Source: Candidatus Melainabacteria bacterium
Lineage (GTDB): Bacteria; Cyanobacteriota; Vampirovibrionia; 2-02-FULL-35-15
Length of the DNA stretch: 64,000 nucleotides
Reading direction: 5' to 3'
NCBI GenBank assembly: GCA_016201905.1
Contig: JACQBQ010000024.1
Location: 52,919-116,918 of the forward strand
The notes beneath the pieces are model-generated. The model saw only the letters and a list, made by a program, of their open reading frames with translations. It did no database searches and had not been told where the DNA came from. Numbering within the stretch: the first letter of the stretch is position 1; every line of letters starts with the position of its first letter. Of this stretch, positions 237-58,716 are shown in pieces. The position numbers and the translations under genes were made by a program.

Positions 237-1496
237 ATGTCAAAACGATTATTTACATCAGAGTCAGTTACAGAAGGACATCCAGATAAACTTTGTGATC
301 AAATATCTGATGCAGTATTAGATGCTGCACTTGCTGGTGATACTAAAAGCCGTGTAGCCTGTGAAACATATGCTACAACAGGGTTAGTAGTTATAGGCGG
401 AGAAATTACTTCAAAAACACAGATTGATTATGATACCTTAGCCAGAAAAACTATAGAAGAAATCGGCTATGCAGGTCCTGATTCAGGTGGATTTGATGCA
501 CATACATGTGGGATTTTAGTTTGTGTAAAAGGACAATCACCAGATATTGCTCAGGGAGTTTCAACTGCTAAAGAACACAGAGATGAAGAATCAAGTGATG
601 CTGCAGATAAGTTAGGCGCCGGAGATCAAGGACTTATGTTTGGATTTGCATGTGATGAGACTCCAGAACTCATGCCACTTCCAATAAGCCTTGCTCAAAG
701 GCTTGCATTAAAGCTTTCTCAGGTTAGAAAAAGTGGTGTTCTTTCTTACCTAAGACCTGATGGTAAGACACAGGTTACTGTTGAATATGATGAACAAGGT
801 GCACCAAAAAGAATTGATACACTTGTAATTTCAACTCAGCATGCAGCAAAAATAAATGGAAAGACGGATAACTTTGATCTGCAAAAGTTTATTGAAGCTG
901 ATATGAAAGAGTTTGTAATTAAACCAGTAGTTGAGCAGCTCGGACACCTAATTGATAAAGATACAAAGTACTTTATTAATCCCTCAGGACGTTTTGTAAT
1001 CGGTGGACCACAAGGAGATGCTGGTTTAACCGGGAGAAAAATTATTGTAGACACTTATGGTGGCTATGCTCGTCACGGAGGTGGTGCATTTTCAGGTAAG
1101 GACCCTACAAAAGTAGACAGATCAGCATGTTATGCAGCCAGATACATTGCAAAAAATATTGTTAGTGCTGGTCTTGCAAAGCAATGTGAAGTTCAGGTTT
1201 CATATGCCATAGGTGTAGCAAAGCCAATATCTGTGAGCGTTTCAACATTTGGCACAGGAAAGATTAAAGACACAGCTCTTGGCGACATTATAAACCAGGT
1301 TTTTGATTTAAGACCGCTTGCAATAATCAAAAAACTAAATCTGCAAAACCTGCCTAAGTTAAACAATGGCATCTTTTACAGAAAGACAGCTGCTTATGGA
1401 CACTTTGGAAGACCTGACTTAAAGCTTCCATGGGAAGAGCTCGATAAGGTAAAAGAAATTCAAAAAGCAGCAAATGGATCTTTTGTTGTGGCATAA
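237..1496 (+). CDS. metK: S-adenosylmethionine synthetase
   Basis: 419 aa. N-terminal [25 protein letters not shown] matches MetK, as do the [16 protein letters not shown] motif and the protein length. Confidence 0.95.
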
Positions 1497-1528
1497 ATAT
1501 AGAGCGTTAAATGAGTTTATAAATATAA

Positions 1529-2152
1529 TTAAGACAAAGAAACAGGCACTAAACCCCTAATCGATTTTTTTTGTTTAATTAAATCCCTGATTTGACTACT
1601 TGAGATATTGATAGGTTTTGTGTGAACCAATGACCATTTGAGATTTTTAATCTTTGGAGCTTTTATATTTTTTGAAGGCCTTGGCAACACAAGAAATGTA
1701 ACCAGCTTAGCAAGCTGGATTGGTTTATTCCATGTATTTAATTTCTCAAATTCATCAGCGCCGATTAAGAAATATAGAATTATTTTGTCATTGCGAGCCA
1801 AAGGCGAAGCAAGCCTGATCATTTTGCGTGAATTCAATTGGGATTGCTTCGTCGTCCGCCCAATGTGGACTCCTTGCAATGACAGTATTGTATCAATCGT
1901 ATATGCTGGTTTTCTTTTTTTAATTTCAATGTCTAAAACCTTAAAATATTTTCTCCCTTTAATTGCTCTTTTTACAAGTTCGTATCTAAATTGTGCAGGA
2001 AATAATTTTTGCCTTGATTTATGTGGTGGAATACCACATGGAATAAAATAAACACAAGACAATTTATATTCTTTGCGCGCAGCTTCTGCCATTTTTAGAT
2101 GTCCAACGTGTATTGGATTAAATGTGCCACCGAAGATTCCGATTCGTTTCAT
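1529..2152 (-). CDS. nadD: Nicotinate-nucleotide adenylyltransferase carrying an in-frame insertion of a palindromic repeat element; start placed at MKRIGIFGGTFNPIHVGH
   Basis: GIFGGTFNPIHxGH nucleotidyltransferase motif and YTIDT...FLIGADEF match NadD. The track ORF runs to 2251 only because the repeat upstream reads through in frame. About 32 extra residues lie between YTIDT and LYFLIGAD compared with B. subtilis NadD. Confidence 0.85.
   Translation of the reverse strand: MKRIGIFGGTFNPIHVGHLKMAEAARKEYKLSCVYFIPCGIPPHKSRQKLFPAQFRYELVKRAIKGRKYFKVLDIEIKKRKPAYTIDTILSLQGVHIGRTTKQSQLNSRKMIRLASPLARNDKIILYFLIGADEFEKLNTWNKPIQLAKLVTFLVLPRPSKNIKAPKIKNLKWSLVHTKPINISSSQIRDLIKQKKSIRGLVPVSLS
1787..1883. 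mobile_element. Palindromic MITE-like repeat copy A (GTCATTGCGAG...CTTGCAATGAC), inserted in frame inside nadD
   Basis: Terminal inverted repeats and an internal inverted repeat (cgaagcaa.../...ttgcttcg) are shared with copies at 2156, 27795, 31037 and 58552. The nadD ORF stays open across it. Confidence 0.85.
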
Positions 2153-2155
2153 TAT

Positions 2156-2243
2156 GTCATTGCGAGCCAAAGGCGAAGCAATCCCGATCGTTTTGCGTGA
2201 ATTCACTCGGGATTGCTTCGTTGCTAACGCTCCTTGCAATGAC
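2156..2243. mobile_element. Palindromic MITE-like repeat copy B between the proA stop and the nadD start
   Basis: About 90% identical to copy A. It sits 4 bp upstream of the nadD ATG and produces a spurious in-frame N-terminal extension in the ORF track. Confidence 0.85.
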
Positions 2244-2247
2244 ATTA

Positions 2248-3513
2248 TCAATCCCTTATTTGCCCTTCACCAGTTACCAGATATTTATATGTCACTAATT
2301 GTTCTAGAGCAATAGGTCCGCGTGCATGTAATTTTTGTGTAGAGATTCCAATTTCAGAGCCAAAACCAAATTCTTCTCCATCAGTAAAGCGTGTGCTTGC
2401 ATTTACATAGACACATGCTGCATCAATTTCTTCCTGAAATTTCTTTGCATTACTTTTATCTTCTGTAATTATGGACTCTGAGTGTTTTGTTCCATATTTA
2501 TTTATATGTTCTATAGCTTCATCAAGCGAGTTTACCACTTTAACTGCGACCTTTAAATCTAAATATTCTTTATACCAATCATCTTCAGTAGCAGGTCTTG
2601 CACTTTTTATAAATTTTCTGGTTTTATCACAGCCAAAGATTTCTACATTTTTATTCATAAGAGCTAACTCAAGTCCAGGTAAAATATTTTGAGCAATGTT
2701 TTTATGAACTAAAATTGTTTCAATGGCATTGCAAACACCTGGTCTTTGTGTTTTTGCATTGATGGCTATATCCACTGCTATAATTTCTTTTGCACTTTCA
2801 TCTATGAATAAATGACAGGTGCCACCGCCTGCCCCAATTACCGGGATTTTTGAATGCTTTAAAACAAAATCTTTTAATTCTTCTCCGCCACGCGGAATTA
2901 CAAGATCTACATATTCTTTTGATTCAAGTATTTTTATAGTTTCATTCCGTTCTTTATTTGCAATGAACTGAACTATACTTAAGTCCAATGAGCTCTTTTC
3001 TAGAGCTTTGTAAATTACATCCACAATAGCCTGATTTGAATGCGTGGCATGCTGACTGCCGCGTAAAACTATTGCATTACCTGATTTAATGGCTAGAGAA
3101 GCTGCATCAGTAGTAACATTTGGTCTTGCCTCATAAATAACACATATTACGCCAAGAGGAACAGAAATCTTTTTTATATCCATTCCCTTTGAATGTTTCC
3201 AGGCAGCTAAAACTTTACCAATAGGATCTTTTTGAGCGATGACTTTTTGAATACTATCAGCCATGCTTTGCAATCTTTTTTCATTTAATAAAAGCCTGTC
3301 TAATAGAGCATTTGAGAGGTTGTTTTTCTTTCCTTCTTCAATATCTTTTTTATTTGCTGCTAAGATGATATCTTTTGATTTAATTAATTCACTGCTTATA
3401 AGTTCAAGTGCTTTATTTCTTTCATCGGATGCAGATTTTGCTAGTTTTCTTGAGGCAATCTTAGCAGCTTTGAGTTGGCTTATGGTATCTTTCAATGCAG
3501 TTTGAGAATTCAT
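2248..3513 (-). CDS. proA: Glutamate-5-semialdehyde dehydrogenase (gamma-glutamyl phosphate reductase)
   Basis: 421 aa. VIYEARPNVT, IPRGG, NAKTQRPGVCNAxETxLVHKNIA and YVNASTRFTDG align closely with E. coli ProA. The proA-nadD adjacency is common in bacteria. Confidence 0.93.
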   Translation of the reverse strand: MNSQTALKDTISQLKAAKIASRKLAKSASDERNKALELISSELIKSKDIILAANKKDIEEGKKNNLSNALLDRLLLNEKRLQSMADSIQKVIAQKDPIGKVLAAWKHSKGMDIKKISVPLGVICVIYEARPNVTTDAASLAIKSGNAIVLRGSQHATHSNQAIVDVIYKALEKSSLDLSIVQFIANKERNETIKILESKEYVDLVIPRGGEELKDFVLKHSKIPVIGAGGGTCHLFIDESAKEIIAVDIAINAKTQRPGVCNAIETILVHKNIAQNILPGLELALMNKNVEIFGCDKTRKFIKSARPATEDDWYKEYLDLKVAVKVVNSLDEAIEHINKYGTKHSESIITEDKSNAKKFQEEIDAACVYVNASTRFTDGEEFGFGSEIGISTQKLHARGPIALEQLVTYKYLVTGEGQIRD

Positions 3514-3558
3514 ATGAACATTATATCTGTAGAGGCAAGGTAACCTTGCTTTGTAGTT

Positions 3559-5202
3559 CTACAATTTATAAATATTGATGAGTGGTCCACCTCTTTCCCT
3601 CTGCCAAAGTGTTTGTAACGGAGAGTATAAATCTTCAACGATAGATGAGTCTACTTTTTTTTCTAATTCCAAGAGGTAAGGATTAAAAGTAATGAATGGT
3701 TTTAATTTAAGGAGCCTTTTATAGTATTTCTTTTCAAGTTTGTGTCCTGGTTCTCTTAAAATCATCTGTGCATCTAAGCTGTTAACAATAACATAGTCAA
3801 CTTTTTTCCTTAAAATCCTAAACCAATCTTTATTTTCTAAAAGTTTCAAGCTAACATAAAACCTTTGTTTATCAACTAGTGAATCCGGGTCCACACCAAT
3901 ATTTTTTAAACTATTCTTGTCATATGGAGCAAATCCTTTGGTTTGTATACTATTCTTATCCCAGACGATCTTTACATCTCCATGAGCATTTTCATTTACC
4001 CAGTCAGTTGCAATAACTCTTGTATCCGACAAACTAATTATTTTATTGTATTTAAATACATACTTAAGCGGAATATAAAATGCAAAAATAAGCAAAACTA
4101 TAAATAAAAACTTTTTATCCCTTTTAAAAGACAGCGAATTAAAAAACATGCCAGATGCAAGACACATATAAGGCAAAAGCAATACTGCATATCCAGAATA
4201 GCTTAGATGAAAAAGTCCTAAAACTGCAAAATAAAAAACGGGTAGTGAAAATAATATTGACAATAAGTTTAAATCATAGTCATTTTTTCTGTATAAGAAA
4301 AAATAAAAAGCACTAATCCAAACTACTGGACCAACTCCAGGGATTAGAAAATTAAATAAATAAAGAAGGTATGAGCTATAGCGATAATCATAATATCCAT
4401 TTATATAACTGGTCGTTAAATATCTAATAAACTCAAGAAAATTAATTATAAGTTGTGGATTAAAAAGCAAAAAAGAAAGTAAAAAACTTCCAAGAAGAAA
4501 CTTAAACTTAGAAAAATCTTTTTTAACTACTTGAACTAGTAAAACAGGGATAATACTTAAAGAGCCTATACAGTTAGTGAACGCACTAAATAGTGCACAT
4601 ACTGTGCTAGAAAAGAGATTTAGATTTTTATTTAAATAAGATTTAAGTATAAATAAAACTGAAAGTAAAGAAAAGAAAGTCATTACACTAAATGGCAAAA
4701 ATATTTGAGAAAATCTTACATGTAATAATGAAACTGCTAAAAATCCACTTGCAAGCAATCCTGTTAGTAGACTGAAAATTGATCCTATAAAATACAGAAC
4801 GATTACTGATCCAACTCCAAACAAAATACTTATAAGCCTAAGAGGAACATAAAATGCACCAGGGTTTACTTCAAGTGTATTTAAAAGGTTATTTATATCT
4901 ATCGTTCCTGAAGTAAAAAAAACCACCAAAGCATTTAAATAAAAATAAAGCGGAGAAGATTCAAAACTATTAAAGCTTATTAGGTGCTTAATTGTAGACA
5001 AGATCCCTAACAGGTTTCTTGATTCATCTGGATTTAATGCATATGGCAATCCATTATAAATACCTCGAGATCTTAAATAAAAAGAAACTATAATTATAAA
5101 GAAAAAAAGCAGATTTTTTTTGCTGGCAGCTTTTTCTAAGGCAGGTTGCTCCTTAACTTGATCTTGTTTTTTTATTTTTTGTAGTACTAAGTTTTCTGGC
5201 AT
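3559..5202 (-). CDS. Polytopic membrane glycosyltransferase of the PMT/ArnT-like (GT39/GT83) family
   Basis: 547 aa with many hydrophobic helices. The N-terminal loop has an YxLNPDESRN motif resembling the DE motif of ArnT/PMT-type transferases. Confidence 0.55.
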   Translation of the reverse strand: MPENLVLQKIKKQDQVKEQPALEKAASKKNLLFFFIIIVSFYLRSRGIYNGLPYALNPDESRNLLGILSTIKHLISFNSFESSPLYFYLNALVVFFTSGTIDINNLLNTLEVNPGAFYVPLRLISILFGVGSVIVLYFIGSIFSLLTGLLASGFLAVSLLHVRFSQIFLPFSVMTFFSLLSVLFILKSYLNKNLNLFSSTVCALFSAFTNCIGSLSIIPVLLVQVVKKDFSKFKFLLGSFLLSFLLFNPQLIINFLEFIRYLTTSYINGYYDYRYSSYLLYLFNFLIPGVGPVVWISAFYFFLYRKNDYDLNLLSILFSLPVFYFAVLGLFHLSYSGYAVLLLPYMCLASGMFFNSLSFKRDKKFLFIVLLIFAFYIPLKYVFKYNKIISLSDTRVIATDWVNENAHGDVKIVWDKNSIQTKGFAPYDKNSLKNIGVDPDSLVDKQRFYVSLKLLENKDWFRILRKKVDYVIVNSLDAQMILREPGHKLEKKYYKRLLKLKPFITFNPYLLELEKKVDSSIVEDLYSPLQTLWQRERGGPLINIYKL

Positions 5203-5792
5203 TCATCTTTTACAAATTGTTGTTCTTCTTGTGCATATTCTTTAACATTTTTTACTTTTTCTTTTATTTTGTCGTCTGGTATTTTATCCAAGGAGCTACT
5301 CAGAACGTCAATTGCATCCGAATAAAGCTTTAGTGCATATGGACAGTTTGGCTGCTCAGCACCATCTAGGTGGTTTCCACCTTCAGCATATTTTTGGAAA
5401 GCTTCAACTACTTTTTGGTATATAGGAACTTCAGGACAAGTACATGTTTTTGTAATGCCTTTTATTGTAAGCCCAGCATCGTTACAGGCTTTAATAGCTT
5501 TAACCCATTCATCTTCTTCTATGGAGCCATATGCTTTTTCTACAGCATCTCTAGCTGGTTTTGCACAAGCACATTCCGGGGCTTTTGGTACCTCTGGAGC
5601 TTTCATTACCTCTTGAGCTTTTGTTGCCCCTGGAGCTTTTGGTACTTTTTTCTCCTGGAGATTAGGTTCTTTTTCTACTGCTTTTACTGTGTCTTTTGGT
5701 TTTAGAGCATCTTGAGCTAATGAAACACTGCTATTTGTAATTACCGAGATTAAACCTATTATAAAAAGTATTTTTCTCATTATAGATGTCAT
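5187..5792 (-). CDS. Secreted Lys/Ala/Pro-rich Cys-containing hypothetical protein
   Basis: N-terminal signal-peptide-like segment (IIGLISVITNSSVSLAQD). Repeated KAPEVPKAPE motifs and several Cys pairs. No recognisable family. Confidence 0.5.
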   Translation of the reverse strand: MTSIMRKILFIIGLISVITNSSVSLAQDALKPKDTVKAVEKEPNLQEKKVPKAPGATKAQEVMKAPEVPKAPECACAKPARDAVEKAYGSIEEDEWVKAIKACNDAGLTIKGITKTCTCPEVPIYQKVVEAFQKYAEGGNHLDGAEQPNCPYALKLYSDAIDVLSSSLDKIPDDKIKEKVKNVKEYAQEEQQFVKDECQKT

Positions 5793-5888
5793 TCTTTTAC
5801 TCCTTGTGTATAAAATTCCTCTTTTAATAATTTATACCACAGTGGTAATTATTCCGCATGTGATATAAGTCAATGCAGTTAATTTTTT

Positions 5889-7001
5889 CTATGGTTTTAC
5901 AGCAACTTGAATTGCTTGACCAGACTTGTGCATTAAAAATGCTTTTTCTAGTTCTCTTAGCGGCACAGTATGGGTGATTATCTTTTCAGAGATCTTTTCT
6001 TGGAAATTAGTATTATTTAATAGATTTAAGGCGATTTTTACATGCTTTGGAGTATGGTGAAAGACACCTATTAACTTAAGCTCATCGTAATGAATACGAT
6101 ATGTATCAAGTTCAACCTTTGAACCTTTTTTACAGCCACCAAAGAAGTTAACTAAGCCTCCTTTGCTTACAAGTTTTGTTGCTAGTTCCCATGTCTCAGG
6201 CAGGCCAACTGCTTCAATAACTATTTCAGGCCCATTGCCATCGGTTAAATATTTTATTTTTTCAATCAACTCTTGCTCGCTTAGTTCTTCAATATTTAAG
6301 ATATGATCAGCACCAAGTTTTTCAGCAAGCTCTAGCTTGAAGGCATTCCTACCAAGCGAGATTACTTTTGCTCCATTTAATTTTGCAATAGCACAAAACA
6401 TAAGCCCAATTGAACCTGTACCAATTATGCAGACCGTTTTATCGCTTGTAACTTGGGATCTTTCTAAACCATGCACCACTACAGAAAGTCCTTCAAGTGA
6501 CGCTGCTGCTTCAAAGCTAATGTTATCCGGTATTTGATAAGTGTTGTATTGGACTATGTCTGCTGGAACAGCAATATATTCTGCATATGCACCATTTAAA
6601 AAAGACAGATTTTCACATAAGCTAAACTTTTCTTTTGCACAAAAGCCACACTTATAACAAGGAGTAGAATTTAAAGCTACAACTCTTTGACCTGTTGAAA
6701 AGTTTTTTACGTTTCTCCCAACTTTTTCTATGACGCCTGAAAACTGGTGCCCAAAAGTAGAAGGAGTAGACTTAATTAAAATAGGATGGCTTCTTTGAAA
6801 AGTTTTTAAGTCAGTACCACAAGTAAGAGCTACTTTAACTTTCACAAGGATTTCATTGTCTCTTATCTTTGGCGTTGGAACTTTTTCATACCTTATATCA
6901 TGTGGACCATAAAAAAGACATGCATTCATTAGCTCAGGAATTTGTTCAACTGACTCCTCATTAATGAAATTCTCTTTTTCTTTTACCAGGTGCAGTGCCA
7001 T
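5889..7001 (-). CDS. Zinc-dependent medium-chain alcohol/polyol dehydrogenase (sorbitol or threonine dehydrogenase-like)
   Basis: 370 aa. The catalytic-zinc region ALTCGTDLK, the structural-zinc Cys cluster CYKCGFCAKEKFSLC and the GxGxxG Rossmann motif IIGTGSIGL are all present. Confidence 0.85.
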   Translation of the reverse strand: MALHLVKEKENFINEESVEQIPELMNACLFYGPHDIRYEKVPTPKIRDNEILVKVKVALTCGTDLKTFQRSHPILIKSTPSTFGHQFSGVIEKVGRNVKNFSTGQRVVALNSTPCYKCGFCAKEKFSLCENLSFLNGAYAEYIAVPADIVQYNTYQIPDNISFEAAASLEGLSVVVHGLERSQVTSDKTVCIIGTGSIGLMFCAIAKLNGAKVISLGRNAFKLELAEKLGADHILNIEELSEQELIEKIKYLTDGNGPEIVIEAVGLPETWELATKLVSKGGLVNFFGGCKKGSKVELDTYRIHYDELKLIGVFHHTPKHVKIALNLLNNTNFQEKISEKIITHTVPLRELEKAFLMHKSGQAIQVAVKP

Positions 7002-7045
7002 AAGTATTAATATAGCATTCAGGGGTATTAACTAAAATGTGACAC

Positions 7046-7088
7046 GTCATTGCGAGGAGTCTTGAAGAGACGACGAAGCAATCTTCCA
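7046..7088. mobile_element. Truncated half-copy C of the palindromic MITE-like repeat (left TIR plus first internal arm only)
   Basis: acGTCATTGCGAGgagtcttgaagagacgacgaagcaatc matches the left half of the other copies. The right TIR is absent. Confidence 0.7.
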
Positions 7089-7230
7089 ATAGTTTTAAAA
7101 GTAATAGCTTGTTATATAGGTCTTTCCATTCTTTAATTCTTTTGACCAAATCATTAGTAACACCTGTGTAAAGAACAGTTTTAGCTTTACTTGTGAGAAT
7201 TACGACTTTTTTACTTCTTAAACAAACTTA
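7089..7230 (-). pseudogene. GIY-YIG nuclease family small protein remnant with no canonical start, whose C-terminal part is replaced by repeat copy C
   Basis: The minus-strand translation VVILTSKAKTVLYTGVTNDLVKRIKEWK matches the GIY-YIG motif (YxYxL...LYxGxTxxLxxRxxxH). No ATG, GTG or TTG lies between the upstream stop and the motif. The frame runs straight into the repeat. Confidence 0.5.
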
Positions 7231-7937
7231 GTGCTCTCACTAATCAGCGCACCTATATTTTCTAGATATTTTTTTAATTCCATTCCTCTTACTTCTTTTT
7301 GTGTTTCAGTATCAAATGCATAGGCTCCTCTCAAATCGGCTCCTTTCAAGTTGGCTCCTTCTAAGTTGGTTCCTACCAAGTAGGCTCCGCTCAAGTTGGC
7401 TTCGTATAAGTGGGCTTCTATCAAGTTGGCTCCTCTCAAGTTGGTTCTTTCCAGGTTGGCTCCCCTTAAAGGATATTGAGCTTGATTAGAACCTAATGAG
7501 CTACTGATAGCCACTAATAATCTATCTAGGTTTATAAAATTATTATTTATTTTAATGTTTAAAGAAGTAAAATCTATTCCGGATAAATTAAGTGGTTCAT
7601 TTCCTTTTTGTGTTCTAAATGCATTTTCTATTTTATCTAGTACCATTAGTATCTCTGCATTGTTTGCATATTTATTTTTTATTCCAAATGGATCTAGAAA
7701 CCCTGTTTGTACCAAGGTTTTTTCTGCTCTTATTCTTCCTATAGCTTCTTGTGGAAGAATTACTCTTTTTACTTCTTCTAATACTTTATTTGCGTCATCT
7801 GTATTATTTACTTTTGTTCTAACTATTGAATTGAAATAAGAAAAAAACTCCTGACCTAGGCCAGGAGATAAGGTTTCTAAAGCTTTAAATGCTTTTTGTA
7901 CTTTCTCTATACCTGCTACATTTTGTACTAATGCCAT
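7218..7937 (-). CDS. Pentapeptide-repeat protein
   Basis: The C-terminal 70 aa are tandem A(N/D)LxG pentapeptides (RGANLERTNLRGANLIEAHLYEANLSGAYLVGTNLEGANLKGADLRGAY). Visible in DNA as repeated ggctcc(t/g)ctcaagttgg units at 7320-7470. Confidence 0.85.
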   Translation of the reverse strand: MALVQNVAGIEKVQKAFKALETLSPGLGQEFFSYFNSIVRTKVNNTDDANKVLEEVKRVILPQEAIGRIRAEKTLVQTGFLDPFGIKNKYANNAEILMVLDKIENAFRTQKGNEPLNLSGIDFTSLNIKINNNFINLDRLLVAISSSLGSNQAQYPLRGANLERTNLRGANLIEAHLYEANLSGAYLVGTNLEGANLKGADLRGAYAFDTETQKEVRGMELKKYLENIGALISESTKFV

Positions 7938-20605: not shown

Positions 20606-23353
20606 TTAGCGACTTAATGGAATCTCTATATCCTTTGAAAAGGACATTCCTTGAGTTATCTGTGTAACAGTTAAGCTTATTTTTTCCGGGAAACCATTAG
20701 GAAATAATTCTGCTATCTCTTTTATTTTTTCTAGTTTTTTTATAGGCAGTACAATTAAATGTACCTTTTTACTTGAATCCTTTGCTGTCAAAGGAAATTT
20801 ATTTGGTGCTATAACTAAAGCCTTTTTAGGTAAATCAGTAGTTATATTAATCAAACTATCTTCCAGACTAGTGTTAAAAAGATTTTGATCAAAACTAACA
20901 ATTAAAAAACTTTTGGCAGGTTTTTTCTGTAAAAGTGTTAATCCACTTAAAGCTGGCCCTTCTATAGCTAAAGAAAAACTTACAGGCTCTCCAGATGAAG
21001 TATTGCCACCTGTAGAACTACTTGTTGAAGAGGAACTTACAGTATTTTTATTATTTGAAGCATCAATGCCTGCATTGCTTGGAGGTTCAATTTGTTTTCT
21101 TGTAAGCGTCAGTGAATCACCGACTATAGGTAATCTAAAAATCCCTCCGCCATTTGTAGCTGCATAAACAGCTGATCCATCAGGTGTAACTGTAAGTCCT
21201 CTTACCTCACGAATTAAAAGTCCATTACTAAATGATTGCCATGTCTGGCCATCATCACCTGAAACATAAAAACCAGTAACATTTCCAGCTGCATAAACTT
21301 GATGTGTGCTAGATATCGGATTAAAAATAATTGAAACAATATTGTCATTGAGATGATTTTCATTACTTAATACAGGCTGCCAGGTACTACCTGCATCACT
21401 TGATCTAAAAATTCGCCCGTCAGAACTTCCTACAAGAATAACTTGAGTGTTTGCTGGACAAACTGAGACTGAATGAAAGGATTTTACATCACCCAGTCCA
21501 TTGTTTATTTGTGTCCATGTTTCTCCACCATCTGTACTTTTAATTATGCCTGAATCATTTGTAGCAGCATAGACAATTTTTTCATCTGTTGGACTAACAT
21601 CACAAGACCAAGTATTTTTAAATCCTGATATTCCTGTTTGCTTATTTATCCACGTCATGCCACCATCTGTAGACTTAAACACTCCCCATCCAATTGAATC
21701 TACAGCATCATGAAAAAGAGATTTTTTAACACATGTAGCAAATGCAGTACTTGGGTTTGATTTTGCCCATTTTATGTCTGTAAAAACAATCTCACCATCT
21801 AAGCCAGTACTTGACGGATGAAGTGCATAATCTTCAGGGAAAAGCATGAAAACAGTTCTCCAGCTCATGCCACCATCAGTGCTAAGAAAGATTGAACTCA
21901 TAGCATTTTGGCTATCACCAAGAAGAACTTTACTACTATCAGCAGGGTGTGGCACAATTGCTTGAAGCTCATCTAATGCTACATCTCCAAGACCAACAGG
22001 CAGCCAGTTTACTCCTTTGTCTTCACTTAAAAAGACACCTGATCTTGAAGTAGCAAAAACTTTATTACCATCTGGGCTTACAGCTACATCTCTTGTTTCA
22101 GAACCAGAATACCCGAAAGCATTTGTAACCCATGTTTTCCCGCCATCTGTAGTTTTAAAAACTCCGCCTATATAACTGTCTACATATACTGTATTTTCAT
22201 CATTTGGATCAACTGCAATATCAATTGGATGGCCAGGATTAGAACCAAGTGGTCCAAACCCAGTCTCTGTCCAAGTCATACCTCCATCCTTTGATTTAAA
22301 AAATATTCCAAATGCACCAGCATAAATTACATTTGGATTTGTAGGGCTTATGCCAAGTGCTGAGTATAGCTGTGGGGAGCCATTGCTACGCTGTCTCTTT
22401 ACCTCAATCCATGTCATTCCACTATCACGAGTTACAATAATTGCTCCATCCTGATTTTCTATATCAGTATCAAACTGTGGAATCATTCCTGTTGTTCCCC
22501 AAATAGTATTTGGATTCATTGGATCAAATTTTATATTTGTAACATAAAGATTTCTTATTCCATTATTTATCTGGGCCCAAGTGCTACCACTATCTGTACT
22601 TTTATACACACCTTCAAGTTTTTCTAGCTGCTGTCTATCAAAAAATCCGCTTGCTACATAAGTAGTATTTGGATTATTTGGATCAATAATTACATCCTTA
22701 AATAAATTCCCCCCACTTAAAACCTGTGCCCAGTTTTCCCCGCCATCAGTTGTTCTATAAAGGATTCCATGTGTTCTTTGAAAGGCCCCCATAAAAGGGC
22801 CAATTTCTTCTAAGTCGCCCGATGCAAAAACTGTATTAGAATCTCCTGGCTTTACTGCAAGCCCTCTAATTTCAACCTCTTCACCGCTTGGTAAGCCATT
22901 GTCTTTATGCTGCCATGTTGCCCCGCCATCAGTTGACAGAAAAACACCCATTGCATTTTTTACACCACACCATATTCGCTGTGGATTATTTGGATCAATA
23001 GTAGTAACAAAAACAGGGATTGCATCTCCTGATTCACCTGCACGCGAATCAATCCCTTGAGTGCTTTCATCCCACGTTAATCCGCGATCACCTGAAATAT
23101 GAATACCAGCAAACGAATCAGTAACAATAATTTTATTGGAATCATTAGGACTAAACCTTATTGTGTAACCTTGCCCACCAAATGGACCATTTAATTTCTG
23201 CCATGGCATTAAAAGGACTTGGTACTTATCAATCAATTCATCTGGTGTTGCAAAATCAGAATATTCTTTAGAGATAATTTTATTCTGTAGAAAGAAAAAT
23301 ATTAAGATCACAAACAAAAAGATAAGAGAAAATCTAAGCTTATAAGTTTTCAT
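20606..23353 (-). CDS. Secreted BNR/Asp-box repeat protein (multi-bladed beta-propeller; Ycf48/sortilin-like)
   Basis: 915 aa with a signal peptide. At least 12 SxDxGxTW Asp-box repeats (STDGGATW, TTDGGENW, STDSGSTW and others), then a Ser/Thr-rich linker and a C-terminal domain. Confidence 0.8.
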   Translation of the reverse strand: MKTYKLRFSLIFLFVILIFFFLQNKIISKEYSDFATPDELIDKYQVLLMPWQKLNGPFGGQGYTIRFSPNDSNKIIVTDSFAGIHISGDRGLTWDESTQGIDSRAGESGDAIPVFVTTIDPNNPQRIWCGVKNAMGVFLSTDGGATWQHKDNGLPSGEEVEIRGLAVKPGDSNTVFASGDLEEIGPFMGAFQRTHGILYRTTDGGENWAQVLSGGNLFKDVIIDPNNPNTTYVASGFFDRQQLEKLEGVYKSTDSGSTWAQINNGIRNLYVTNIKFDPMNPNTIWGTTGMIPQFDTDIENQDGAIIVTRDSGMTWIEVKRQRSNGSPQLYSALGISPTNPNVIYAGAFGIFFKSKDGGMTWTETGFGPLGSNPGHPIDIAVDPNDENTVYVDSYIGGVFKTTDGGKTWVTNAFGYSGSETRDVAVSPDGNKVFATSRSGVFLSEDKGVNWLPVGLGDVALDELQAIVPHPADSSKVLLGDSQNAMSSIFLSTDGGMSWRTVFMLFPEDYALHPSSTGLDGEIVFTDIKWAKSNPSTAFATCVKKSLFHDAVDSIGWGVFKSTDGGMTWINKQTGISGFKNTWSCDVSPTDEKIVYAATNDSGIIKSTDGGETWTQINNGLGDVKSFHSVSVCPANTQVILVGSSDGRIFRSSDAGSTWQPVLSNENHLNDNIVSIIFNPISSTHQVYAAGNVTGFYVSGDDGQTWQSFSNGLLIREVRGLTVTPDGSAVYAATNGGGIFRLPIVGDSLTLTRKQIEPPSNAGIDASNNKNTVSSSSTSSSTGGNTSSGEPVSFSLAIEGPALSGLTLLQKKPAKSFLIVSFDQNLFNTSLEDSLINITTDLPKKALVIAPNKFPLTAKDSSKKVHLIVLPIKKLEKIKEIAELFPNGFPEKISLTVTQITQGMSFSKDIEIPLSR

Positions 23354-27783: not shown

Positions 27784-27794
27784 TAACTTTACAC

Positions 27795-27884
27795 GTCATT
27801 GCGAGAAGCGTTAGCGACGAAGCAATCTCAACAACGTGAGTGAGATTGCCACGTCGTCCGCCTAGGCGGACTTCTCGCAATGAC
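27795..27884. mobile_element. Palindromic MITE-like repeat copy D (hom-aspS intergenic)
   Basis: ACGTCATTGCGAG...CTCGCAATGACGT termini with an internal inverted repeat gacgaagcaatctca/tgagattgccacgtcgtc. Confidence 0.85.
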
Positions 27885-27913
27885 GTTATACGGTAAAATA
27901 AATAATAAATCTA

Positions 27914-30204: not shown

Positions 30205-30633
30205 TTGTGTCAAAGGCACGTTAGGAAATTGAAAAAAAACAAATACAAAAAATATAAACATTGCCTCATCTTAATTGCGCATGGAAGTAAAGAGCTCCAA
30301 TGGCGCAGGCCTTTTGAAAGACTCATCGGTAAATTAAAAAGAGAGCTGCCAGGAGATTACATTTCCATTGCTTACATAGAGTCACTAAAGCCATCGCTTA
30401 GTGAGGTAATGAAGAACTTATCTAATAAAAAAAGTGCAAACTACATAAAATTATTACCTCTTTTTATGGCAGCTGGCTCTCATATAAATCGTGATATAAA
30501 GGAACTTGTTTCTAGAGCTAGAAAGAAATCACCAAAATTAAAAATTGAAGTTCTGCCACCAATTGGCGAACATCCTAAAATAAGCTCAGTAATTTGTGAA
30601 ATAATAAAAGGGTATTTAAATCATGTTAGCTAA
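30205..30633 (+). CDS. CbiX/SirB-like small sirohydrochlorin chelatase domain protein
   Basis: 142 aa. [10 protein letters not shown]...[14 protein letters not shown] resembles the short CbiX(S) chelatase fold, which has a His near the N terminus. Confidence 0.5.
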
Positions 30634-31504
30634 AAGAATTATTCCTTGTTTAGACGTAAAAGATAGGCGTGTCGTCAAAGGCACAAAGTTTCTAGATTTA
30701 AAAGATGCTGGTGATCCTGTAGAGCTTGCAAAGTTCTATAACAAAGAAGGAGCTGATGAGCTTTGTTTTTTAGATATTACAGCAAGTCACGAAGAAAGAA
30801 AAACACTTATTGAAATGGTAGAAGCTGTTGCTCGTGAGGTTTTTATACCATTTACTGTCGGTGGCGGTATTAGCACTACTGAACAAATGAAGAGTATCTT
30901 ACGCGCTGGGGCAGATAAAATCACTATTAATACTGCTGCTATAAAAAATCCAAGACTGATTACAGAAGGAGCCAAAATATTTGGCTCACAGTGTATTGTC
31001 CTAGCTATCGATGCAAAACAGGAGTCCTACGTTAGCACGTCATTGCGAGGAGAGGAGCGACCCGCTTCGCCCGCAAAGCGAGGCGAGCGAAGCAATCTCG
31101 AAAACGCTTATGATATTGCCACGCCTTCTTTGAAGGCTCGCAATGACGTAAAGCGATGGACTGTTTATATAAAAGGTGGGAGAGAAAATACTAATATAGA
31201 TGCTATTGAATGGGCTAAAAAAGCTGTTACCTTAGGCGCTGGTGAAATATTACTTACCAGCATGGACGCAGATGGTACAAAAGCAGGTTATGATATTGAG
31301 CTTACAAAAAAAATCGTTGAAGCTGTAAATGTTCCAGTAATAGCTTCTGGTGGTGCTGGAAAAATTGATGATGTAGTTAATGTATTTAAAAAAACAAACT
31401 GTGATGCTGCACTGTTAGCTTCAATACTCCACTTTAAAGATATTTCAATAAAAGAAATAAAAAATAAATTAAAAGAAGAGTTGGTTTCTGTAAGACTAAA
31501 CTAA
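30623..31504 (+). CDS. hisF: Imidazole glycerol phosphate synthase cyclase subunit HisF, carrying an in-frame insertion of a palindromic repeat element
   Basis: [41 protein letters not shown] and IASGGAG match HisF. About 40 extra residues ([44 protein letters not shown]) lie between AIDAK and the W-containing strand. Confidence 0.92.
31037..31149. mobile_element. Palindromic MITE-like repeat copy F inserted in frame inside hisF
   Basis: ACGTCATTGCGAGG...GCTCGCAATGACGT termini and a GC-rich internal palindrome. The hisF ORF stays open across it. Confidence 0.85.
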
Positions 31505-44454: not shown

Positions 44455-44527
<73 letters not shown>

Positions 44528-44666
44528 AATTCTTCCACAAGAATGTGAGTGATTAATGGTGTGCTAATAAAGCGAACCTTGTTCCAATTTATTTGGACAA
44601 GGTGAGCGGTATTTGCAAGGCTGGTTCGAGGAGCAACGTCACCGCAGAACCAGCTGTTAGAGATAC

Positions 44667-44718
44667 AGCAGAGGACTGAAAATCCTTGTGTCGGCAGTTC
44701 AATTCTGCCTCGCGGCAA
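44667..44718 (+). repeat. 52-bp direct repeat of the tRNA-Phe 3' end (anticodon stem to acceptor end), preceded by a degenerate copy of the 5' half
   Basis: AGCAGAGGACTGAAAATCCTTGTGTCGGCAGTTCAATTCTGCCTCGCGGCAA is identical to 44477-44528. The upstream 25 nt resemble the tRNA 5' half at about 70%. Confidence 0.85.
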
Positions 44719-58551: not shown

Positions 58552-58640
58552 ACGTCATTGCGAGGAGGTACGATGTACCGACGTGGCAATCTCTAAAACG
58601 TTATTGAGATTGCTTCGTCGCTAACGCTCCTCGCAATGAC
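58552..58640. mobile_element. Palindromic MITE-like repeat copy E abutting the 5' end of the aldehyde dehydrogenase gene
   Basis: ACGTCATTGCGAGG...CCTCGCAATGAC termini. Internal palindrome GTACGATGTACCGACGTGGCAATCTC.../...GAGATTGCTTCGTCG. Confidence 0.85.
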
Positions 58641-58716
58641 ATACTACACTATTGTAGAATATAAGCTTGTGCATTGGTAGTAAGTCATAATTTAATAATG
58701 AAAGCAGCTAATCAAC

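Follow-up and report, generated by a model that had tools for sequence, protein, structure and literature searches.

A dispersed palindromic repeat read in frame through a loop of HisF in Candidatus Melainabacteria

How can hisF, the gene for the cyclase subunit of imidazole glycerol phosphate synthase, hold a GC-rich palindrome within its coding sequence and still be read from start to stop, and what kind of protein would result? The question is raised by a stretch of 64,000 nt (hereafter the window) from a metagenome-assembled genome (MAG) of Candidatus Melainabacteria bacterium (assembly GCA_016201905.1, contig JACQBQ010000024.1, positions 52,919 to 116,918 of the forward strand). For this locus an earlier note, made from the sequence alone, had claimed a 113-bp palindromic copy inside hisF, a reading frame open through that copy and about 40 additional residues after the motif AIDAK, all of which the present analysis bears out. 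We put the probability at about 0.78 that a dispersed, GC-rich palindrome inserted in frame into a permissive loop of hisF and is carried there as a tolerated selfish passenger. The long HisF would then be made and active, and the event would presumably have been an insertion by a mobilising activity.

The properties of the element itself provide the first line of evidence (coordinates in Table 1). Its terminal arms are complementary at 13 of 13 positions, and the consensus of termini across phyla, Y-GTCATTGCGAG...CTCGCAATGAC-R, sets its ends at 31038 and 31148, a length of 111 nt or exactly 37 codons. The first base of hisF codon 139 coincides with the start of the element, which is read T-S-L-R-G ... 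A-R-N-D-V without stop or frameshift; translation also returns the insert peptide quoted in the earlier note. On either side the hisF sequence continues as ...TACGTTAGC before and AAAGCGATGG... after the element. The GC content of the element is 56%, against 33–38% (about 35%) for the window, and the left arm contains an extra hairpin that accounts for the additional 20 nt or so by which this copy exceeds the intergenic ones. Among the 37 element-encoded residues, 13 are charged, five are Ser and three are Pro, and all six frames of the element give only short repeat-derived peptides.

The surrounding gene is identified as hisF at the level of sequence, domain and residue. Its product is 100% identical to GenBank MBI3590853.1, the HisF of a "Candidatus Melainabacteria bacterium" MAG on a contig of 166,939 bp, and the His_biosynth domain (PF00977) is precomputed for an identical protein, so that both full-length similarity and the domain assign it to the HisF family. 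HMMER matches chains of HisF in the PDB to both halves of the protein (E 4e-97 to 1e-77). Asp11 and Asp130, the catalytic residues of HisF in the numbering of the Thermotoga maritima enzyme, occupy invariant alignment columns, the window HisF included. The nearest relatives are 84–86% identical to it outside the loop, with one fragment of 208 aa at 90%.

Comparison with other HisF proteins delimits what has been added. The HMMER alignment is split, residues 1–133 and 179–292 of the window HisF matching residues 1–133 and 138–251 of the PDB chain, and the loop between AIDAK and a conserved Trp measures 45 aa, against 5–15 aa in nearly all relatives inspected. The exceptions are three relatives with loops of 21, 23 and 37 aa; every relative inspected is shorter in this loop than the window HisF, whose net gain amounts to about 38–40 aa. 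The insert segment is present in none of the 111 other database proteins from which the loop was extracted, and the comparison with close relatives that the earlier note had proposed as a check found none with the same 40-residue segment lacking repeat termini. The best 119 HisF relatives are 250–285 aa long except for a few proteins of 479–491 aa, apparently fusions, and in both relatives of 285 aa the extra length consists of N-terminal extensions.

The position of the insert in the fold was assessed with an AlphaFold2 model built from a 57-sequence alignment of database sequences only. The barrel is confidently predicted, with eight beta-alpha units and a predicted template-modelling score (pTM) of 0.81, and Foldseek aligns the model to solved HisF structures with template-modelling (TM) scores of 0.89–0.95, normalised to the target; model and structural match together place the protein among the (beta/alpha)8 barrels. 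Strand beta5 (residues 125–133) is followed in the model by a beta-hairpin (179–183, beta5', and 188–193) and then by helix 5, so that the insert, which begins three residues past catalytic Asp130, lies in the turn from beta5 to beta5', on the barrel's catalytic (C-terminal) face. This turn is the most length-variable spot among the HisF proteins inspected. Residues 137–174 have a predicted local distance difference test score (pLDDT) below 50 and no secondary structure, and the insert is most likely a disordered loop hanging out from the predicted structure, with barrel and active site intact. The earlier note had placed the insert in a surface loop and had looked to AlphaFold for an ordered hairpin there: the loop is confirmed, but its location is not a neutral one, and the hairpin does not appear.

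The same loop has received palindromic sequence in other HisF lineages. One relative (P0085, 267 aa; locus L121, 3373–3495) carries, at the same loop and read in the same phase, the right half of an element of the hisF family, giving a loop of 21 aa, in a syntenic aspS...hisF locus that was assembled independently in two runs (L121, L122). Another (P0116, 284 aa; L123, 2176–2358) contains a complete element of the sister GTCATCCTGAG family at this point, with a loop of 37 aa, and a third (P0051, 273 aa) shows a long loop after AIDAK as well at the protein level. With the loop set aside, P0001 and P0085 share 79% identity, and closer short-loop relatives exist for each, which makes independent events the more parsimonious account. 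Since palindromic inserts of 21 and 37 aa occupy this loop, and loops of 13–15 aa occur in several relatives, the site is permissive, and the sequences point to the HisF turn after AIDAK as a recurrent landing or survival site. The "natural loop-insertion experiment" of the earlier note thus stands as an in-frame loop insert but not as a single case, given these inserts in other HisF lineages and a further copy in nadD, described below. Beyond HisF, the UvrA of a gammaproteobacterial MAG (L025, minus-strand open reading frame (ORF) 3511–6240, in reverse-strand coordinates) holds an in-frame copy of 29 aa (VIASKAKQSHSTGSANNGIATSPLAPRND), flanked by residues 304–492 and 525–878 of the ORF, to which PDB chains of UvrA align.

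Further copies of the element lie within the window. The terminal 13-mer, with up to two mismatches, occurs 10 times, against 0.35 occurrences expected from shuffles, and the occurrences resolve into five full copies and one half copy of the element. Every full copy folds as a long hairpin with side hairpins, with z-scores for the DNA of −4.2 to −9.0. Both intragenic copies (hisF and nadD) are in frame and free of stops and the remaining three full copies are intergenic, the pattern to be expected from a filter of selection. No more palindromes were found in the other GC-rich islands of the window and no hidden or decayed copies in its ORFs; Rfam matched only two tRNAs in the window at gathering thresholds, and a permissive search (E up to 10) around two of the copies gave nothing meaningful.

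The nadD copy allows the fate of such an insert to be followed among relatives. PDB chains of NadD align to residues 2–92 and 125–204 of the window protein, either side of the copy. The GenBank entry for this NadD (MBI3590827.1) has 225 aa, its start having been placed inside the element copy upstream, and NadD proteins of relatives are likewise called with N-terminal MSLRG...RND extensions derived from the upstream copy. Among NadD relatives of 57–77% identity, a full element stands at the same site in many (P0122, P0126, P0127, P0143, P0156), decayed remnants of it persist in others (P0123, P0124, P0133, P0135, P0136), and some are without it (P0129, P0130, P0137, P0164). At the DNA level, one locus (L124) carries a full internal nadD copy together with another that sits at the start codon as called, and in another (L125) nadD retains only a 22-nt remnant running from terminus to terminus. 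The nadD insertion therefore looks old and vertically inherited among Melainabacteria, judging from these sequences, and its retention at the same site in relatives shows that the element is compatible with an essential enzyme over long periods.

The element belongs to a family found in many phyla. A scan for the exact pattern GTCATTGCGAG, 62–92 nt, CTCGCAATGAC, with one genome taken per species, gave at least 120 loci, and among those listed are Alphaproteobacteria (many Bradyrhizobium, Rickettsiales and Candidatus Tisiphia), Gammaproteobacteria (Legionellales), Bacteroidota, Patescibacteria, Chloroflexota, Planctomycetota, Desulfobacterota, Margulisiibacteriota and Caenarcanales. In 258 stacked arms from 129 copies in other genomes, conservation stops at Y-GTCATTGCGAG. 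The termini of the family are YGTCATTGCGAG and CTCGCAATGACR and its inner boxes CGAAGCAATC and GATTGCTTCG; in an alignment of 15 copies the four boxes GTCATTGCGAG, CGAAGCAATC, GATTGCTTCG and CTCGCAATGAC are conserved and the GC-rich hairpins between them variable. Both halves of the element form hairpins of their own, four ATTGC/GCAAT boxes occur per element, and the 11-nt termini and 10-nt inner boxes are identical between genomes that differ widely in phylum and GC content. The GTCAT...ATGAC ends are common to sister families, and in them the outer and inner boxes co-vary (ATCCT/AGGAT instead of ATTGC/GCAAT). Literature searches with the element motifs returned primer coincidences only, with no paper mentioning the motifs and nothing relevant on Melainabacteria repeats, and no Rfam family or name was found for the element.

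Two further observations concern family members in other genomes. A predicted multi-pass membrane protein of 519 aa (L117, ORF 1270–2826, plus strand) stays open through a 113-nt copy (VIASTPRGINSAKQSHGTVERTEGLPRRPAIAGLLAMT). At L083, around position 1916 on the minus strand, the last residues encoded by the ORF of a small GIY-YIG nuclease are ...NVIASRND, resembling a remnant of the element in which the two termini are fused. An association of the elements with GIY-YIG nucleases of the COG2827 type found no backing in a motif scan of the window and the 120 loci, in which this was the only such nuclease near elements.

Table 1. Positions of hisF, nadD and the copies of the palindromic element in the window.
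Feature	Coordinates	Strand	Details and basis
hisF (imidazole glycerol phosphate synthase cyclase subunit)	30623..31504	+	ATG to TAA, 293 aa, element read through; ORF list
Palindromic repeat element in hisF	31037..31149	+	113 nt by terminal inverted repeats; residues 139–176; inverted-repeat search
Left terminal inverted repeat ACGTCATTGCGAG	31037..31049	+	read T-S-L-R-G
Additional GC-rich hairpin, left arm of hisF copy	31064..31093	+	arms 31064–31074 and 31083–31093; inverted-repeat search, copy alignment
Inner box CGAAGCAATC, kept across phyla	31088..31097	+	repeat families, copy alignment
Inverted partner inner box (GATATTGCCACG, GATTGC(C/T)(A/T)CG variant)	31112..31123	+	repeat families, copy alignment
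Right terminal inverted repeat CTCGCAATGACGT	31137..31149	+	read A-R-N-D-V
nadD (nicotinate-nucleotide adenylyltransferase)	1529..2152	-	207 aa from ATG at 2152; PDB NadD match
Element copy in nadD, in frame	1785..1885	-	read LSLQGVHIGRTTKQSQLNSRKMIRLASPLARND, phase as in hisF
Full element copy between stop of upstream gene (2248) and nadD ATG	2154..2245	-	in frame with nadD, starts ATG (ATGTCATTGCAAG)
Half copy of element, left arm only, intergenic	7044..7085	+	repeat families, 13-mer matches
Full element copy, intergenic, just upstream of aspS	27793..27886	+	DNA fold −36.5 kcal/mol, z = −9.0
Full element copy, intergenic, between divergent ORFs	58552..58642	+	13-mer matches, DNA folding

These observations suggest the following course of events. 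A dispersed, non-autonomous, GC-rich nested palindrome would have entered hisF at what are now codons 139–176, the inserted piece amounting to whole codons (111 nt) and lying in one of the two phases (here S-L-R-G ... A-R-N-D) that have no stop in a terminus; hisF stays open because both conditions hold. The product would be a HisF with about 38–40 hydrophilic residues in the beta5-beta5' turn. Copies that break genes would be removed by selection, and only in-frame, stop-free copies in permissive loops would remain. The family at large gives a measure of how often an insertion could survive in this way. Across 143 copies, length modulo three is distributed as 57/49/37, with no bias towards multiples of three; when the length is right, the "SLR...RND" and the "HCE...LAMT" phase are free of stops in about two thirds of copies, and the "VIA" phase always runs into a TGA in the right terminus. 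From these figures it follows that about 15% of random intragenic insertions would keep the frame open, a rate that, as estimated from the copies, is enough for survivors to be seen.

Several points weigh against this account. The alignment behind the structural model contained no homologues of the insert, so that low pLDDT is to be expected there and does little to establish disorder, and an insert near Asp130 on the catalytic face could impair activity. No empty-site allele of the same species was found, the protein forming a single-member cluster at 90% identity and two exact-flank scans of Joint Genome Institute (JGI) metagenomes being negative; the direction of the event, insertion here and not loss elsewhere, therefore rests on parsimony. 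Target-site duplications did not exceed a shuffled-pair control in 143 copies (offsets 0–4; lengths 1–6 tabulated and 1–9 compared), which leaves a classical cut-and-paste (DDE-type) miniature inverted-repeat transposable element (MITE) unsupported, and no transposase or other mobilisation signature was found for the element family. A parent insertion sequence bounded by these ends did not turn up, although no systematic search for one was made. Additionally, the sequence comes from a MAG, in which assembly could have joined parts of different copies within one repeat.

The rival that survives best is that hisF is a recent pseudogene, in which the insertion near Asp130 killed the enzyme and the frame is open by chance. 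The distance of three residues from a catalytic residue speaks for it, and so does the estimate of about 15% just given, which makes an open frame weak evidence of function; moreover, the element is barely decayed, and its perfect termini suggest a recent event that would leave little time for decay of hisF to appear. Yet substitutions at conserved positions are not in excess: of the alignment columns conserved in 85% or more of 57 HisF sequences, which number 144, the window HisF deviates at two (R15 and I192), which is the median among its relatives and hence no sign of decay. Two intragenic copies that are both in frame and free of stops would arise by chance in only about 2% of cases at about 15% each, the same loop holds palindromic inserts of 21 and 37 aa in other HisF lineages, and the nadD insert persists across divergent relatives. 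Taken together, these points make loss of function unlikely.

A tolerated passenger might also have acquired a role, the peptide serving as an active-site lid or partner-binding loop, or the mRNA or DNA hairpin controlling hisF expression. From the fold, the beta5 turn would correspond by pseudo-twofold symmetry to the mobile loop 1 of the active site, a suggestive position for such a role; the predicted structure of the strand is strong (−53 kcal/mol, z = −4.1, for the mRNA of the hisF copy); and the terminal motifs of the nadD insert are kept across relatives. Against this, the hisF insert occurs in one genome only among the database proteins retrieved, its sequence is plain repeat-family sequence, the other two HisF loop inserts differ in sequence, and the kept nadD termini are also explained by internal deletions of the palindrome that spare its ends, as in the 22-nt remnant of L125. 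We regard such an exaptation as decidedly improbable.

Still less probable is an assembly artefact, in which the metagenome assembler spliced a repeat into hisF. Repeats of about 100 nt with identical ends can mislead de Bruijn assemblers, and the source is again a MAG; but the flanks are collinear hisF in one frame, the inserted length preserves that frame, and independent assemblies show palindromic inserts both in the same loop (L121/L122 from two runs, and L123) and in nadD (L124, L125). That the segment is removed before the mature protein forms, as an intein or an intron would be, has nothing beyond the discreteness of the insert in its favour and is very improbable, since 38 aa is far too short for an intein (a Hint domain exceeds about 130 aa), the junctions S-T-S-L ... 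R-N-D-V lack the C/S/T ... HN-C/S/T signature, and no Rfam intron or other RNA family matched at E up to 10.

Elsewhere in the window, three regions with repeats of other kinds were recorded. The tRNA matches at 44455–44527 and 44653–44717 (plus strand), 190 nt apart, have a 58-nt stretch in common at 97% identity; with a score of just 31 bits, where the first reaches 70, the second may be a degraded or partial duplicate. Positions 7318–7469, inside the minus-strand ORF 7218–7937, contain a 15-nt periodic repeat in seven overlapping copies of 62 nt, typical of a gene for a pentapeptide-repeat protein. In the minus-strand ORF 20606–23353 (915 aa), motifs of 25–46 nt recur every 135–270 nt between 21497 and 22940, which suggests a repeat-domain protein; the reverse-complemented motif ACAGATGGTGG in this ORF would translate as T-D-G-G, like the repeats of the Asp-box or BNR type.

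For the enzyme, the closest points of reference are engineered loop and half-barrel variants of HisF and the HisF of T. maritima (PDB 1THF, 1GPW). The latter is the same enzyme with the same fold (46–47% identity; TM 0.89–0.93, target-normalised) and the same catalytic Asp11 and Asp130, conserved in the window HisF too, but has a short turn after beta5 where the window HisF has 45 residues of repeat-element origin. HisF is a model (beta/alpha)8 barrel for studies of folding, allostery and enzyme design, and a natural insert of 38–40 residues just past Asp130, with two more in the same turn, marks a loop tolerant of large insertions and offers ready-made constructs for probing the response of the barrel. 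For annotation, the lesson is that peptides such as SLRG...ARND, HCE...LAMT or VIAS... come from repeats when they turn up inside predicted proteins or at their ends.

For the element, three classes of bacterial repeats come into question. REPs (repetitive extragenic palindromic sequences) are 20–40 nt long, typically with a GTAG head, extragenic by definition, lineage-specific and mobilised by RAYT transposases (REP-associated tyrosine transposases). Along with the bacterial interspersed mosaic elements (BIMEs), they resemble the present family in being structured palindromic repeats without target-site duplications, but the copies of the hisF family are 78–121 nt long, have a GTCAT head, are in some cases intragenic and are common to many phyla, and the hisF element is accordingly not a REP. 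MITEs share with it small size, non-autonomy, terminal inverted repeats, high copy number and an occasional intragenic, translated position; the difference lies in the lack of detectable target-site duplication and in the hairpin formed by each half of the element. Translated or in-frame MITEs known from bacteria include intragenic copies of ERIC (enterobacterial repetitive intergenic consensus), QMITE1 of Coxiella, and the Anabaena elements MITEb and MITEe (PMC10969869).

The nearest counterparts are the Rickettsia palindromic elements (RPE), with RPE-1 to RPE-10 described as in-frame inserts in many unrelated Rickettsia genes (Ogata et al. 2000 Science 290:347; 2002 Genome Res 12:808), according to a review (PMC10969869), which explicitly expects similar cases outside Rickettsia. 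The likeness extends to dispersed palindromes of about 100–150 nt, in frame in unrelated housekeeping genes, divided into several families and found in varied states of decay; furthermore, the hisF-element family and its sister GTCAT...ATGAC families are themselves present in Rickettsiales genomes. The host differs, being a Melainabacteria MAG (from a sister lineage of Cyanobacteria) and not Rickettsia, and the hisF-element family (GTCATTGCGAG...) is spread over many phyla. The best explanation is that this dispersed palindromic repeat, in frame in hisF, nadD and the UvrA of L025, is RPE-like by behaviour and not by host, a likeness drawn from behaviour and not from a sequence match to a named RPE. 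Wolbachia palindromic elements constitute a comparable system.

To our knowledge, most descriptions of palindromic repeats lying in frame in essential genes come from Rickettsia, to which such repeats were once called unique. Here the process is seen in Melainabacteria as well, where a repeat family that crosses phyla has reached two housekeeping enzymes in 64 kb. A bolder extension, which we hold only tentatively and consider rather doubtful, would unite these repeats in a pan-bacterial GTCAT...ATGAC superfamily with co-varying boxes and a conserved structure or mobilising machinery, repeatedly entering the same permissive loops of housekeeping enzymes and persisting there for long; in its favour stand three or more apparently independent events in the beta5 turn of HisF and the ancient NadD insert shared among Melainabacteria. 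If that were true, the remodelling of proteins by RPE-type repeats would occur generally in bacteria, with certain landing sites preferred, and would not be a peculiarity of Rickettsia.

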